The notes beneath the pieces were generated by a model that was not told the origin of the DNA, searched no databases, and saw nothing but the letters and a program-made list of their open reading frames with translations. Source: Gaiellaceae bacterium (lineage in GTDB: Bacteria > Actinomycetota > Thermoleophilia > Gaiellales > Gaiellaceae). From it: DNA of 62,334 bases. The stretch covers positions 1 through 62,334 of the forward strand of contig DATLDK010000087.1 of NCBI GenBank assembly GCA_035525905.1, in the 5' to 3' direction. The first letter of the stretch is position 1. Every line of letters starts with the position of its first letter. A program made the translations under genes and the position numbers. This document shows positions 2,464 to 56,541 of this stretch, piece after piece.

Positions 2464-3663
2464 GTGAAGCAGATTTACCCCAATTCCATCACCGGCAAGG
2501 GCGCTCCCGCGGGCGGCAGCGTCCTCGATCACAAGTTCGGGCAGTCCGATCCGTACACGCTCGGCGTCGAGGAGGAGTACATGTTGCTCGACGGCGAGAC
2601 GTTCGACCTCGTCCAGCACATCGACACCGTGCTCAGGGCGATCACGGGGCACGAGCTCGAGCCCAGGATCAACGCGGAGCTGATGCAGTCCGTGCTCGAG
2701 ATCGCGACTCCCGTGTGCCGCAACGCGGGCGACGTCCAGCGCGAGCTGCTGGAGCTCCGCGGCTACGTGACCGGAATCGCCCGGCAGAAGGGCCTCCGCG
2801 TCGGGTCGGCCGGCACACACCCGTTCAGCCTCTTCGAGCGCCAGCGGATCACGGCCCGCGACCGCTACCGGAACCTCGTCGACCAGCTGCAATACATCGC
2901 GCGCCGCGAGCTCATCTTCGGCATGCACGTCCACGTCGCCGTCGACGATCCGGAGAAGGCGATCCAGGTCGTGAACGGGCTATTGACTCAGCTCGGGCCG
3001 CTCCTCGCCCTGTCGGCATCGTCGCCGTTCTGGCGCGGCGAGCCGACGGGCCTCTCGTCGTCCAGGCAGATGGTCTTCGCCGCGTTTCCCCGTTCCGGCC
3101 CGCCGCCACGCTTCCGCGACTACGCGGACTACGCGGAGGTGGTCGGCCAGCTGGAGCGCACCGGGTGCATCGCGGACTACACCCACATCTGGTGGGACAT
3201 CCGCCTGCACCCTCGGCTGGGCACGATCGAGATCCGGATCTGCGACGCGGTCACCCGCGTCGAGGACGCCGTCGCCCTTGCGGCCTACTGCCAGGCCCTC
3301 GTCAAGCTCCTCTCGGAGCAGCACGACCGCGGCGAGCAGATCCCCTCCTTCCATCGCATCCTCACGACCGAGAACAAGTGGCTCGCCGCGCGCTACGGAC
3401 TCGAGGCGCCCGTGATGGATCTCGCGACCGGGGCTCGGAATCGCATGCCCGTCGCGCAGCTGATCCGGCGGACCCTGAAGGAGATCGAGCCGCACGCCCG
3501 CGAGCTGGGCTCGGAGCGGGAGCTCGAGGGCATCGGCGAGATCCTCGGGCGCGGCAACGGCTCCGATCGGCAGCTGAGGGTCTTCAACGCCAACCGCGAC
3601 ATCGTCGAGGTCGTCGAGGAGATCGCGAAGGCGACCGAAGCCGCCGTGCCCGCGCGCGCCTAG
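2464..3663 (+). CDS. carboxylate-amine ligase, YbdK / glutamate-cysteine ligase family 2
   Basis: 399-aa ORF with an N-terminal FGQSDPYTLGVEEEYMLLD and overall GCS2-like sequence. The start is GTG. Confidence 0.8.
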   Translation: MKQIYPNSITGKGAPAGGSVLDHKFGQSDPYTLGVEEEYMLLDGETFDLVQHIDTVLRAITGHELEPRINAELMQSVLEIATPVCRNAGDVQRELLELRGYVTGIARQKGLRVGSAGTHPFSLFERQRITARDRYRNLVDQLQYIARRELIFGMHVHVAVDDPEKAIQVVNGLLTQLGPLLALSASSPFWRGEPTGLSSSRQMVFAAFPRSGPPPRFRDYADYAEVVGQLERTGCIADYTHIWWDIRLHPRLGTIEIRICDAVTRVEDAVALAAYCQALVKLLSEQHDRGEQIPSFHRILTTENKWLAARYGLEAPVMDLATGARNRMPVAQLIRRTLKEIEPHARELGSERELEGIGEILGRGNGSDRQLRVFNANRDIVEVVEEIAKATEAAVPARA

Positions 3664-7552: not shown

Positions 7553-7561
7553 ATTCGCGCG

Positions 7562-7993
7562 GTGTTCTGGCTCGACAACGGCACGCAAGCCGAGCTCGAT
7601 GAGCTCCTCGACCGCGGTCCGGTGCTGCTCCTCTTCTACCTCTTCGACTGGTCGCCGACCTGAACGCAGGAGCTGCGTCTCCTGCGTGACAGGAGCGCCG
7701 ATTTCGAGCAGGCAGGCGTGCGGGTCTTCGGCGTCTCCCGCGATTCGCACTGGTCGCACCGCGCGTGGAAGGAGTCGCTCGGAATCGAGGTGCCGCTCCT
7801 CTCAGACTGGAACGGCGCGCTCGCGAAGCGCTTCGGCGCAGCGCGGGTCTGGCGCTGGATGGAAGGGGTGCCGCGGCGCAGTGCCTTCCTCGTCGGCGAG
7901 GACGGTACGGTGCTCGGATCGTGGCGGTACGAGGACTCGGACGTGCCCGACTTCGACGAGCTGCTCGCGGCCGCGCGGGCGTTGGCGGGCTAG
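7562..7993 (+). CDS. peroxiredoxin-like (AhpC/TSA/BCP family) candidate selenoprotein; in-frame TGA 7661-7663 read as Sec
   Basis: Reading the frame of ORF 7718..7993 from GTG 7562 gives ...VLLLFYLFDWSPT-TGA-TQELRLLRD..., the Prx active-site block with TGA at the peroxidatic Cys position. There are no other stops, and a hairpin lies directly 3' of the TGA. Confidence 0.7.
7664..7687 (+). promoter_or_regulatory. candidate bacterial SECIS hairpin
   Basis: ACGCAGGAG (7664-7672) and CTCCTGCGT (7679-7687) form a perfect 9-bp stem with loop CTGCGT. The stem starts 1 nt after the in-frame TGA. Confidence 0.55.
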
Positions 7994-9423
7994 CGCTCGC
8001 GCTCTATCTCGGTGCGGGGGTGCTCGCCACCTCACCTGCCGTCTTCGAGACCGACCACTTCCTCGGCTACGGCGCGCCGCGCGAGGGACGGGTGACACCG
8101 GGTGACCACCTGCAGACGGCCTACAACCTCTGGCTGCCGGGGCACCAGCTCGCCCGCGGCGCGAGGCCTTGGGTCGACCCCTACAGCTTTCAGCCGGAGA
8201 TCGAGCCGCGCGTGAACTTCGCCGGTTGGCCGTTCGCGGTCGTCTACGGGCCGCTGCGGGCGCTGCTCGGCACCGTGGCGGGCTGGAACCTGTTCGTCCT
8301 GCTCAGCTACGCGGGTGCCGGCGGCTTGGCGGCGCTCTGGCTGCGCGCGCTCGGCCTGCCGCTCGGCGCGGCGATCGTGGGGGGGCTCGCCTTCACCCTG
8401 GCGCCCTACCGCGTCGCCCAGTCGACCGGTCACCTCCTCGGCCCGATCTCGATGCTGCTTCCGCTCGCGCTCTACGGGCTCGAGCGCCGGCAGGCCTGGC
8501 TCGCCGCGCTCGCGCTGGCGTCGATCCCGCTCTCCGGCCAGGTGCACCTCGCTCTCGGCGCCGTCCCGTTCGTGCTCGCCTATGCGCTCGCCCGCAGGCG
8601 AGCGTGGCTCGGTGCGATCGCCACTGCCGCGGGCGTTGCAGCAGGCGTCGTCGTCTGGGCTCTCTCACTGCATGACGCCGTCGAGCGCCCCTACTCCGAG
8701 GTCGAGCGCTACTCGGCGTCGGTGAGCGACTTCTTCAGCCGCAACCCGGCCGAGTTCGAGCGCTTCACATACGTCGGCTGGGTGCTGCCCGTCGTCGCGC
8801 TCGCAGGCGTGGGGTGCTTGTGTTTCAGAAGCACGATCTCCTCCGGCCGAAGGCTCGCCCTGGTGCTCGGCCTGGGCGTACTGGCTCCCTGCCTCCTCGC
8901 GCTCGGGGCGAGCCTTCCCGGTTACGGCGTGCTCTGGCGGCACACGCCGCTGCACTCGACCCGAGTCCCCGAGCGGCTGTTGCCGATCGCGTGCCTCTGC
9001 CTCGCGGGACTCGCAGCCGCAGCAGTCGCTTGTGTTTCAGAAACACGAGCTCGCTCGCGGCTCGTCGCGGCGGTCGCGGCCCTCGTGGTGGCGGCCGACC
9101 TCTGGGTGCCGCTCTACGACCCCCTCAACGCGGATGAGGGCAACGCGGTCTACGCCCGCGTGGCCGCCGCTCCTTCCGGGCGGCTGCTCGAGGTTCCCGT
9201 GCTGGCGCCGGACTCCTACGCCGGCAGCGTCTACCTCTACTACGCGATGCAGGCACCCCGGGAGCGGCCGCTCGGGTACTCGACCGCAGCTCCGTCCGAG
9301 GCCTTTCGCACGGCCGGCGAGCTGCCGGGCAGCGCGCGCGATCTGGGCGTCTCGGTGGTGGTCGAGTACTCGAACGGCGCGCCGGTTCGGGCGACGCGCG
9401 ACCTGCGGACACCGCTACCGTGA
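7921..9423 (+). CDS. large polytopic membrane protein, uncharacterised (possibly GT-C/YfhO-like)
   Basis: Part of the 7765..9423 ORF with many hydrophobic helices. The start is uncertain: GTG 7921 gives a basic N-terminus followed by a TM segment, and GTG 8020 is the alternative. Confidence 0.6.
   Translation: MAVRGLGRARLRRAARGRAGVGGLALALYLGAGVLATSPAVFETDHFLGYGAPREGRVTPGDHLQTAYNLWLPGHQLARGARPWVDPYSFQPEIEPRVNFAGWPFAVVYGPLRALLGTVAGWNLFVLLSYAGAGGLAALWLRALGLPLGAAIVGGLAFTLAPYRVAQSTGHLLGPISMLLPLALYGLERRQAWLAALALASIPLSGQVHLALGAVPFVLAYALARRRAWLGAIATAAGVAAGVVVWALSLHDAVERPYSEVERYSASVSDFFSRNPAEFERFTYVGWVLPVVALAGVGCLCFRSTISSGRRLALVLGLGVLAPCLLALGASLPGYGVLWRHTPLHSTRVPERLLPIACLCLAGLAAAAVACVSETRARSRLVAAVAALVVAADLWVPLYDPLNADEGNAVYARVAAAPSGRLLEVPVLAPDSYAGSVYLYYAMQAPRERPLGYSTAAPSEAFRTAGELPGSARDLGVSVVVEYSNGAPVRATRDLRTPLP
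8816..8840. repeat. AT-rich palindromic motif, copy 1 (GCTTGTGTTTCAGAAGCACGATCTC)
   Basis: The core GTGTTTC-A-GAAGCAC is at 8820-8834, inside the membrane-protein CDS. Confidence 0.8.
9028..9052. repeat. AT-rich palindromic motif, copy 2 (GCTTGTGTTTCAGAAACACGAGCTC)
   Basis: The perfect palindrome GTGTTTC-A-GAAACAC is at 9032-9046. It matches copy 1 at 23/25 positions and lies in a different reading-frame phase. Confidence 0.8.
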
Positions 9424-53245: not shown

Positions 53246-55364
53246 TCAGCGTCGGAGGATCGCGGGGACGACCGCGGATACCGCGGTCGTACCGTCCAGC
53301 GCGCGCGCGATTGCAACGAGGTGGACGGTTTCCCCGCGGCGATAGGCCTTCGGATCGAGGAATGCGCGGTAGGGCGGCGAGTCGTCCACTGCGAGACGGC
53401 GCCAGCTCCCGCTCGCGCGCCGCACGGCGAAGGCGACGCTGACGGTCTTGGCGTTCGGTGTCGTGGTCACGCGCACGAGCTCGGTGAGGTCGTCGGCAGC
53501 GACCTCGAGCTTCGGAACAGCGGGACGGGCGACGGGAAGATCGGCGTTCGCGCGCAGCAGCAGCGTGCCGGTCGGAGGGATCGAGACGACGAGCCCACCG
53601 GTGTCGTTGCTGCGCGAGTCGACGCCGATCAGCCCGGTCCAGTCTGCAGAGGGCGTGGACGTCGGCACGACCACTCGCTCTGTCGTCGTCCCCGCGTTGA
53701 AGGCCGCGACATACTCGCGCTTCGCCGCCGCATCGATGCGGCTGACGGCGAGCACGCCGCGCGCTGCGAGCCGGACGATCGAGGCGCCGCTCGAAAGGGC
53801 AGGGTGCGCGTCGCGCAAGGCTCCGAGGACCTTCAGCTCGTCGGCGATCGGATGCGAGGCGATCTCGAGCGAGGAGCCGGCGCCGATCGGCGCCGAGCCG
53901 ACGCGCTCGCCGGTCCGCCATCCGGCCACCTGCGTCGGAAAGAGATCCTGGCGCGCCTCCTTGTCGCCGCCGCTGCCGACGATCCCCACCTCGTCCCCGT
54001 AGTAGACGACAGGAGCGCCGCGCAGCAGGTACATGAGGCTGTAGGCGAGCTGGACGCGCCGCAGCAGCTCGGCGCCACTCGTGCCTCCGGAGCGATCCTT
54101 GATCATGCGCGCGGCCCGCCCCATGTCGTGATTGCCGAGGAAGGTGGGCGGCGTGTGTGCGACACCGCTCGGGCCCTGGAAGTAGTCGTCGTCGTCGAGC
54201 CGGGCGACGATTCCCTTCGCGCTCGCCGCGCCGGCGGCGTAGCGCGTGGCGGCGTCCTGGAAGGGGAAGTCGAGCACGTTCGGGAGCCTGCGCTCACGGA
54301 CGAAGCTCGAGAGCTCGATCGCGTCGGAGTTGAACACCTCGCCGAAAAGCTCGAACTCGGGGACGCCGGCGGCGCGAGCGGTCGCGAGGATCTTGGGCGT
54401 CCAGACCTTGAAGAACGCTCGATCGACGTGACGCGCCGTGTCGATTCGGAAGCCGTCCACCTTCGTGCGGCGGATCCAGTCGCCGTAGACCCGAGCGAGG
54501 CCGTTCACCACCACGGGCTGCTCCGTGAAGAGATCGTCGAGGCCGAAGAAGTCACCCTGCTCGAAGCAGGTCTCGCTGCACGAGCCGAAGTCGATGTCGC
54601 CCCGGTTGTGGTACCGCCGCGCATCGTTCAGCCAGGCCGGGCTCTTGGCGTGCCGGTCCTCCGCGAGCACGACCGGCACGCGTGGGAAGTTGCCCACCTT
54701 CAGGCAGGGAAACGTGCGGCCACCCGCGTACCGGGCGGGATTGAAGGCCTTGCCGCGACAGTCGCGGTAGGGAGCGGACGAGTAGCCCGTCCCCGACGGA
54801 AGGATCACGTCCGCGGTGTGGTTGACGACGACGTCGAGGTAGACCTTCAGCCCGAGCCGGTGCGCGCACGCGACGAAGTCGGCGAAGTCCGCGTTGGTGC
54901 CGAGGTGAGGGTCGACCGAGGCGAAGTCGCGGATCCAGTAGCCGTGGTAGGCGGCGCTCGAGCCCTGGACGGTCTTCTGGCCGAACGGAGGGGTGACCCA
55001 CACCGCGGTGAAGCCGAGCGCCTTGATCCGGGCGAGGCCGGTGCCTGACGTGCAGCCGCCCGTGAGGCCGCGGAGGTCACCCCCGTGGAACCAGCCGGTG
55101 TCGGCCGGGTCGTAGCCGGTGACGCTGCGAGGGCCCGTCCGACCGCCGCGGTCGTTGGCGGTATCGCCGTTCGCATAACGGTCGGTCATGACGAAGTAGA
55201 TGCGCTGCGATGCGATCGAGCTGCGGCGCGGCGGTTGCGCGAGGGCCTCGAGTAGCGCCCCCGTGGGCGGCGGCGGGGCCGAGACCTTGTGTTTCTGAAA
55301 GACCAGGTCTGTTGCGGCGCTCGCCGACGTGGCCGCGACGAGCGCGATGACTACGCCCGCCGCT

Positions 55365-55381
<17 letters not shown>
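53246..55381 (-). CDS. secreted GH13 alpha-amylase-family glycosidase
   Basis: It has DGFRIDTARHV, ELFGEVF and FLGNHDMGR. I favour the start at GTG 55381 because it has an AGGAG Shine-Dalgarno sequence and the signal peptide VSRFVRAAGVVIALVAATSASA. The ORF extends to 55417. Confidence 0.8.
55285..55309. repeat. AT-rich palindromic motif, copy 3 (CCTTGTGTTTCTGAAAGACCAGGTC)
   Basis: It matches copy 2 (9028-9052) at about 20/25 positions and has the core GTGTTTC-T-GAAAGAC. It lies 72-96 nt inside the secreted GH13 CDS, just after the signal-peptide codons. Confidence 0.7.

Positions 55382-56541
<1,160 letters not shown>

Follow-up and report, generated by a model that had tools for sequence, protein, structure and literature searches.

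To my knowledge, the REP/REPIN-RAYT systems, which pair repetitive extragenic palindromic (REP) sequences with a REP-associated tyrosine transposase (RAYT), are the only well-described short repeats that persist for long in bacterial lineages together with a dedicated protein. They have been described mainly from Proteobacteria. This report concerns a stretch of 62,334 nt from a Gaiellaceae bacterium (the window), in which a short AT-rich palindrome occurs three times inside genes, twice in a gene for a membrane protein and once in a gene for an amylase. The window is contig C67 of the assembly that I will call G000 (2.47 Mb in 162 contigs, 69% GC, 94% complete). The three sites are probably relics, in solo form, of a REP-like palindromic DNA element that is confined to one lineage and whose partner protein G000 has lost. 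In relatives of the same genus the palindrome takes three forms: in-frame solos in protein loops, intergenic doublets, and pairs that bracket a gene encoding a protein of about 106 amino acids (aa). The bracketed gene with its two palindromes will be referred to as the cassette.

REP systems (REPtrons) combine palindromic repeats of 20–40 nt with a RAYT tyrosine transposase (PMC3733652, PMC3116915, PMC3337134), and the repeats carry a conserved GTAG (or CGTC) tetranucleotide at one end (PMC3733652). Like REP sequences, the units considered here are short hairpin-forming palindromes dispersed in tens of copies, as singles and as doublets with a short spacer. Both are restricted to particular lineages, fall into several subfamilies within a genome, and vary greatly in copy number between close relatives, and in both the gene of a cognate protein, mostly single-copy and vertically inherited, is flanked by the repeats, while occasional copies are intragenic. 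In contrast to REP systems, the gene flanked here encodes an all-helical protein of no detectable family, not an IS200/IS605-type Y1 transposase with an HUH motif and a catalytic tyrosine, and neither GTAG nor CGTC appears in alignments of 12 doublets or of 12 cassettes, the consensus flanks being (G)AGC/GACT on the left and AAGC/AAAGTC on the right. The palindrome is a near-perfect dyad with a 1-nt centre, AT-rich in a genome of 69% GC, and a large share of its copies appears to be intragenic. REP sequences are predominantly extragenic; here the doublets of the copy-rich relative G020 sit at gene junctions, and the convincing copies in G000 all lie within open reading frames (ORFs).

Rickettsia palindromic elements, in published summaries (PMC10969869, PMC3733652), are in-frame insertions of about 100–150 bp with a conserved peptide in one frame and a CGTC tag. 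Both they and the present element are in-frame palindromic inserts in unrelated genes, at positions compatible with the fold, that add a short peptide; the present element differs in its 21-nt unit, its use of three reading phases, its lack of a CGTC tag, and its dedicated small protein gene. Miniature inverted-repeat transposable elements derived from insertion sequences resemble the present element in being small and non-autonomous, in occupying an orthologous site in some genomes and not in others, in the symmetry of their ends, and in forming families akin to the ends of a protein-coding master element. They differ from the case at hand in that no target-site duplication is seen here (5 loci), no DDE or recognisable transposase is found in the master unit, and each end forms a full palindrome by itself, where a terminal inverted repeat would supply a single arm.

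A different kind of comparison is offered by SlmA and its SBS sites, Noc and NBS, and MatP and matS, in which tens of dyad sites of 13–20 bp per chromosome, many of them intragenic, are served by a small dimeric DNA-binding protein. Tens of short dyad sites, many intragenic, are also found here, and a small dimeric binder would fit them. As generally understood, however, the sites of those systems arise by point mutation, not as modular inserted units, and they show neither a polymorphism of empty, solo and doublet states nor a bracketing of the gene for the binder. The closest analogues are REP/REPtrons and Rickettsia palindromic elements, yet the defining features of both are missing here.

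Three palindromes within genes

Copy 1 lies on the forward strand at positions 8816–8840 of the window (25-mer GCTTGTGTTTCAGAAGCACGATCTC, with core TTGTGTTTCAGAAGCACGA at 8818–8836), and copy 2 on the same strand at 9028–9052 (25-mer GCTTGTGTTTCAGAAACACGAGCTC, with core TTGTGTTTCAGAAACACGA at 9030–9048). Both are contained in a single forward-strand ORF of 552 aa (7765–9423), whose translation resembles a polytopic membrane protein and matches no Pfam family. Copy 3 lies on the reverse strand at 55285–55309 (minus-strand reading GGTCTTTCAGAAACACAAGG, core 55287–55305), within a reverse-strand gene (53246–55417) for a secreted protein of the alpha-amylase family, glycoside hydrolase family 13 (PF00128, E = 1.4e-48), which has a probable start at ATG 55402 and a signal-peptide-like N-terminus. 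Relative to the family consensus TTGTGTTTCWGAAACACAA, copy 1 has two mismatches towards G/C, copy 2 one, and copy 3 two to three. In frame, copy 1 is read as (C)LCFRSTI (LCFRSTIS), in the loop following a transmembrane helix, copy 2 as CVSETRA (ACVSETRA), and copy 3 as DLVFQKHKV, right behind the signal peptide of the amylase-family protein. The original prediction was accurate in its description of the sites: the two 25-mers are identical at 23 of 25 positions, are 212 nt apart and fall in different codon phases, and the third copy is where it was placed, in the amylase gene.

The degenerate 15-mer GTGTTTCWGAAASAC, with up to two mismatches allowed, is found at three sites in the window (8820, 9032, and 55289) as against an expectation of 0.03 from 100 shuffled sequences, none of which reached a count of three. 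The RNA hairpin of the family consensus has a calculated energy of −15.4 kcal/mol (12-bp hairpin, z = −4.5), that of copy 1 −9.8 and that of copy 2 −12.0 kcal/mol. The hairpin of copy 3 is nearly gone, at −5.0 kcal/mol, no better than shuffled sequence.

The listed start of the membrane-protein ORF, GTG at 7765, falls within a peroxiredoxin gene (7553–7993 of the window). Since the 5' part of the listed ORF overlaps this neighbour, the true start is probably further downstream.

Insertion into host genes and constraint on the nucleotides

Orthologues of the membrane-protein gene are found in all 26 sampled congeners of G000 and in 28 of 41 genera of the family. About 20 congeners carry both palindromes at the same positions, and in most of them the position of copy 1 holds a perfect TTGTGTTTCAGAAACACAA. 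Both palindromes are absent from 27 orthologues, two from the divergent congeners G013 and G014 and 25 from other genera, and in these the loops are shorter, by about 5 aa at the site of copy 1 and by about 6–7 aa at that of copy 2, where G013 and G014 show a gap of 7 aa. Copy 2 amounts to exactly 7 codons (21 nt, CVSETQA), directly ahead of an ancestral basic R-S-R loop. Both copies have therefore been inserted in frame into short basic loops, to which they add length, and the alignments are best explained by insertion in an ancestor shared by most of the genus. Internal duplication of the gene, which the original prediction had named as a finding that would refute it, is rejected because the intervening 212 nt are free of repeats and the orthologues in other genera lack only the short inserts.

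The amylase insert is present in G000, present and perfect in G020 and G041, and represented by a variant, TTGTGTTGAAACAACACAA, in G014. It is absent from the orthologues of G012, G007, G005, and G002, each of which is 8 aa shorter there. The history of the amylase copy appears from these alignments to be separate from that of the membrane-gene copies.

Within the genus, the codons of the palindromes stay AT-ending (TGT, GTT, TCA/TCT, GAA, ACA, CAA, TTG, AGA) while those of the flanks drift. The GC content at third codon positions is 0.24 in the membrane-gene palindromes as against 0.91 at other columns with an invariant residue, and the fraction of the majority codon across species is 0.96 in the palindromes and 0.77 elsewhere (p = 0.003). 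The central base of the membrane-gene palindromes switches only between A and T. Other cores are found at these sites in some species: in G009 one new core is shared by the two sites, and the core here called type B is present in G006 and G023. The contention that conservation acts on the nucleotide sequence rather than on the protein is borne out by the use of three reading phases in different genes and by the retention of AT-ending codons, against synonymous drift, in about 20 species.

Two other identities were considered for the sites. A motif at the level of the peptide, LVFQKH, was first suspected because the differences between copies 1 and 2 both fall at third positions of that frame, and it was rejected because the true frames differ among sites and the alternative frames are typical off-frame products of high-GC sequence. 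A selenocysteine insertion sequence element was rejected for want of an in-frame UGA upstream. A genome search also turned up one in-frame TAG in each of the membrane-gene orthologues of G009, G007, G011, and G005, with the stops outside the aligned stretch.

The palindrome family in the genus and in G000

The family consensus is CTTGTGTTTC-W-GAAACACAAG, a 21-bp palindrome of two 10-bp arms about one central base. Its 17-mer core (up to two mismatches) was found in 22 of 24 genomes of the genus, at 5–41 copies each, mostly perfect; other genera of the order were represented by 16 genomes, all of them without it. The reversed pattern, used as a control, gave zero matches in every genome. Copy number within the genus spans 0 to 41. 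Doublets are intergenic units of about 75–100 nt, two palindromes 58–85 nt apart. They account for many of the sites in G020, where the similarity amongst doublets stops at the outer edges of the palindromes. The spacer within a doublet is GC-rich, 40–70 nt long, and carries one of two conserved cores, CGCAACCATGCGG or GGAACGGCTTGGTTGAGCG. Pairs 212 nt and 591 nt apart also recur in several species; these are orthologues of the membrane-gene pair and of an ATPase-gene pair described below. A search of 12 doublet loci against Rfam with permissive E-value filters gave two sub-threshold chance matches and no matching family, and no account of such repeats in Gaiellales was found in the literature searched.

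Assembly-wide, G000 has about seven convincing copies, which together define the full 21-bp palindrome. The motif is enriched in the genome, as the original prediction implied it should be, with 17 loose matches compared to 4 for a control pattern with swapped arms. The convincing copies occupy spots that readily tolerate a short peptide, among them two loops between helices in the membrane protein and a position just behind the amylase signal peptide. Two more, on contig C60 (3355–3375 and 3946–3966, locus L001), are 591 nt apart in the gene for a fused ATPase of the energy-coupling factor (ECF) class of ATP-binding cassette transporters and bracket its second ATPase domain, encoding the linker VRGSETQA and the C-terminal tail LCVSDAQA. 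The same 591-nt pair is present in G008, G020, and G007. In many bacteria the two ECF-type ATPases are encoded by separate genes, and these palindromes may therefore mark former intergenic junctions that have become read-through. A further copy lies in the C-terminal tail of a family-4 uracil-DNA glycosylase. The copy in the gene for SelB, CTCGTGGTTCAGAAACACGAT (contig C9, approximately 3597–3617, L003), is read as DLVVQKHDV at the junction of the G-domain and domain II and, with three mismatches, is a borderline member of the family. Across the host genes, the palindrome is read in each of the three phases (LVFQKH, CVSETQ, and LCFRNT). There is no perfect copy anywhere in the G000 assembly; all carry one to three mismatches towards G/C.

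Some loose matches in G000 have the form GTGTC-N5-9-GACAC with arms resembling TTGTGT/ACACAA (C32:20666, C42:18223, C71:944, and C154:839). They look like decayed relics of a second subfamily with a type-C core, TTGTGTCTGATAGACACAA, which is abundant in G022 and G011, and G000 therefore seems to hold eroded copies of more than one subfamily. A search of G000 for the doublet spacer core CGCAACCATGCGG returned chance matches only.

An artefact of assembly or adaptors was ruled out by the natural variation of the copies, the maintenance of open reading frames, and conservation over independent assemblies, as well as by the absence of half-palindromes near contig ends in G000.

A small gene bracketed by palindromes

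In G020, a small ORF on the minus strand lies between two palindromes that are 407 nt apart. Homologues of its product were found in 23 of 26 congeners, at 1–5 copies each, and at all 12 of the loci fetched within the genus the gene is bracketed by a palindrome pair 383–407 nt apart. The cassette is about 0.45 kb in length, comprising a palindrome, a leader of about 70 nt, the gene, and a second palindrome that abuts or overlaps the end of the gene and is translated as its tail in different phases, CVSETQ in cassettes of type A and LVxQEHKAF in those of type B. The ORF is judged to be a real gene because it is under purifying selection, with a median dN/dS of 0.17 (at dS 0.4–1.4), and its AlphaFold (AF2) model reaches a predicted local distance difference test score (pLDDT) of 81. 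The modelled protein is all-helical, with three short N-terminal helices, which on the model could form a helix-turn-helix, followed by two long arginine-rich helices. No Pfam, NCBIfam or PHROG family and no sequence in the Protein Data Bank (PDB) matches it, nor did Foldseek find a significant structural neighbour in the PDB.

A profile search gathered 361 cluster representatives of the cassette protein, nearly all of 90–140 residues. The protein is confined to one taxonomic family, in which it is found in nine genera besides this one, and there is none in about 127 genomes from other families of the class. In the other genera, the gene is bracketed at 8 of 12 loci, and on 3–4 metagenome contigs in addition, by perfect palindromes of 19–33 nt, each with a sequence of its own (CTTGTGGCTCWGAGCCACAAG, CAAGTAACACWGTGTTACTTG, GGCTTGTGTTGAWTCAACACAAGCC).

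A RAYT or other Y1 transposase was considered as a partner and rejected. Genes of PF01797 (Y1_Tnp) are found in 24 of 26 congeners; the six best of these loci have no palindrome within 1.5 kb, and such genes also occur in G010 and G013, genomes that lack the motif.

Two further observations concern the cassette gene itself. A block GGCACG(C/A)T is strongly conserved 6–15 nt upstream of the start codon (ATG or GTG) of every cassette paralogue (L075–L086), with no Shine-Dalgarno sequence; it might represent either the −10-like element of a leaderless transcript or another site of protein binding. In public gene calls (P0133, P0225, P0228, P0233) the ORF is carried on through the palindromes or its tail is joined to an adjacent gene, such as that of a rhodanese, and database entries for the family are therefore often 10–170 residues too long.

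Correspondence of palindromes and cassettes, and their turnover

Cassette paralogues carry palindromes with distinct inner cores inside common outer arms, TTGTGT...ACACAA. The correspondence is best followed in G022, where the core CTGATAG is found in about 16 copies and matches a type-C cassette on C123, TTTCSGAAA in about 9 copies matching a cassette on C138, and TTACAGGAA in about 8 copies matching a type-B cassette; the canonical core TTTCWGAAA is found once, and G022 has no matching (type-A) cassette. An orthologous intergenic locus holds the canonical form in G020 and, in G022 and in G011, the variant of the genome's own cassette. The number of canonical copies is higher in genomes with a type-A cassette, 22–41 as against 0–32 (Mann-Whitney p = 0.0005). 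Since the variants match the resident cassettes, something genome-wide keeps the copies in step with the cassette that is present. The palindromes remain perfect at dS of about 0.5–1.

The units are also present or absent as a whole. In G000, the sites of five G020 doublets are cleanly empty, without a residual solo. At the equivalent of G000 C59:35430, 11 genomes have an empty site, 2 (G011 and G023) a solo palindrome, and 5 (6 loci) a doublet. Close relatives differ in the state of doublet loci, G003 from G019 and G006 from G023. Such polymorphism of empty, solo and doublet states is characteristic of a mobile or actively removable unit and not of operators born by point mutation.

The sixth doublet locus arises because G018 carries the otherwise single-copy equivalent of C59:35430 twice (C7:27553–28342 and C8:22212–23010), with different doublet spacers. 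The duplication, together with 6% contamination of the assembly, suggests that two strains were binned together, and if so the sequences show that doublet content differs even between very close strains.

Probable absence of the cassette from G000

Twenty-one members of the cassette family were compared with G000 by tblastn, with a best E-value of 0.057. When 150 distant representatives were used, the only matches were to neighbouring genes that gene callers had fused to the tail of a cassette, and a profile hidden Markov model run against 25,506 six-frame fragments of G000 gave nothing at E ≤ 10. A borderline tblastn match of a distant family member on contig C9 proved to be the antisense strand of an unrelated gene. 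At the site syntenic with the type-A cassette, G000 has only a 23-nt spacer between two stop codons (C87:6364–6387). These searches make the absence of the cassette from G000 probable, short of proof in an assembly that is 94% complete. In a tree of the membrane protein the genomes with a type-A cassette are scattered through the main clade, and the nearest neighbour of G000 has the cassette, which, on this one gene and its weak nodes, makes loss in G000 likelier than primary absence.

Discussion

The reading that I consider probable may be put as follows. The cassette protein would bind the palindrome as a dimer and, directly or through recruited host functions, would keep the dispersed copies identical and let them spread. 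Solos, at exactly 7 codons, would persist within genes only in short loops or linkers able to accommodate the insertion. G000 would have lost every cassette of the family, and its copies would therefore probably be without DNA-level function now, drifting towards G/C and persisting merely as short loop insertions in the host proteins. The modular doublets, the empty, solo and doublet states, the parallel subfamilies, and the switches of core across a whole genome favour spread and homogenisation driven by the protein over sites selected individually. The wider idea of a feature at the level of the DNA holds up against the refuting conditions that the original prediction had set, the motif being enriched, kept in orthologues, and not a product of internal duplication.

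Several observations weigh against this account. The cassette protein is too small and simple for any known kind of transposase, with no catalytic motif evident, and alignments of filled and empty sites at five loci reveal neither a target-site duplication nor a conserved motif at the insertion site. In 8 species the type-A cassette occupies a syntenic position in single copy, as would a regulator under vertical inheritance. The G000 copies have decayed only modestly, by 1–3 mismatches each, and altered copies stand at the same sites in G009, G006, and G023 as well. The cassette could lie in the missing 6% of the G000 assembly, and loss as opposed to gain, of cassettes and doublets alike, has been polarised on a tree of a single gene with several weak nodes.

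I put forward more tentatively the possibility that the protein and its palindromes constitute a previously undescribed, vertically inherited intragenomic replicator, in which a DNA-binding protein of neither the HUH nor the DDE kind directs the copying, replacement or homogenisation of 21-nt hairpins chromosome-wide. Such a replicator may account for 7-codon in-frame insertions into essential and secreted proteins as well, the paralogous pairs of protein and palindrome may be orthogonal systems within one genome, and G000 may be a natural knock-out that displays the fate of the copies after the protein is gone.

Somewhat less likely still is that nothing moves at all, the palindromes being operators or binding sites of the small helical protein acting as a chromosomal regulator or nucleoid-associated protein. 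The protein would regulate its own gene through the upstream site, the dispersed sites would be kept by selection (for transcription, chromosome organisation or roadblocking), and new sites would arise rarely and then be fixed. The architecture of the site suits a regulator, a dyad of two 9–10-bp half-sites about an unconstrained central base, as does the placement of the cassette site about 70 nt upstream of the start codon; yet the sites show no promoter bias, falling in coding loops, C-terminal tails, and stop-codon junctions. The synteny of the type-A cassette in 8 species resembles that of a housekeeping regulator, and intragenic sites hold fixed positions in about 20 species, but copy number ranges from 0 to 41 within the one genus, and the doublets are modular, with two conserved spacers, and are present or missing as whole units even between G003 and G019. 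Site variants that follow the resident paralogue are what co-evolution of a regulator and its sites would produce. Selection site by site could hardly achieve the switch of a 5-nt core across a whole regulon, however, and several discrete subfamilies expand in parallel inside one genome. The original proposal of a dimeric regulator stands in part: a DNA-binding partner is plausible and a candidate is found in relatives, but G000 lacks that candidate. The related proposal of an operator, internal promoter or roadblock acting on the membrane-protein gene is not supported. The copies there are inherited loop inserts, the element is found also in unrelated genes and at gene junctions, and the candidate binder is missing from G000. 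On the reading preferred here, the sites are operators of neither the membrane-protein nor the amylase gene.

It is improbable that the hairpins act in the host mRNA, whether by pausing translation at domain boundaries to aid co-translational folding or insertion or as RNase or stability elements. The energy of the 12-bp consensus hairpin and the position of the intragenic copies at linkers or domain boundaries in all cases examined (signal peptide, transmembrane helices, ATPase domains) are in keeping with such a role, but these positions are equally expected from a filter that tolerates 7-codon insertions only there. The same sequence, moreover, occurs in both orientations and at intergenic junctions, the hairpins in G000 are degrading, to the level of shuffled sequence in copy 3, there is no match in Rfam, and the bracketing of a specific protein gene, and covariation with it, would be left unexplained.

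The HspR-associated inverted repeat (HAIR), a CTTGAGT-N7-ACTCAAG dyad upstream of dnaK, clpB or lon operons, is bound by HspR of the MerR family, and the inner TGTTTCA/GAAACA of the palindrome resembles half-sites of parS. That the sites are HAIR operators, as the original prediction had hinted, or belong to another known actinobacterial regulator or to ParB, and are intragenic by chance, is scarcely credible: the consensus outer arms CTTGTGT-N7-ACACAAG do agree with HAIR, in its generally known form, at 12 of 14 positions, but the 5/10 pair is T/A instead of A/T and the G000 copies are all intragenic (chaperone promoters were not examined individually); the only HAIR-like site in G000 (up to two mismatches) is a weak intragenic match on C154, itself one of the relic-like GTGTC/GACAC palindromes; the motif is absent from 16 genomes of the order's other genera, which would still need HspR or ParB sites; the sites go with a small unclassified protein gene, without a Pfam hit and not shown to be of the MerR/HspR type, rather than with chaperone genes; and the spacing of the half-sites is 3 bp off that of parS, with sites spread over many contigs and not clustered.

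If the three sites are indeed relics of a REP-like element, then the same overall logic as that of REP/REPIN-RAYT systems, a flanked partner gene, subfamilies matched to its paralogues, and variable copy number, is now found in uncultured high-GC soil actinobacteria. What is distinct here is a partner without a recognisable catalytic fold and a unit of exactly 7 codons that has been repeatedly built into proteins. For annotation, AT-rich palindromes of this kind in Gaiellaceae genes are not operators of the host genes, and a genome without the cassette carries eroding copies only. Should the protein prove to be the specificity factor, it would represent a new DNA-binding family with a readable recognition code, since many natural pairs of protein and palindrome exist, and possibly a new route by which short DNA sequences are spread or homogenised, and with it a source of small insertions in protein loops.

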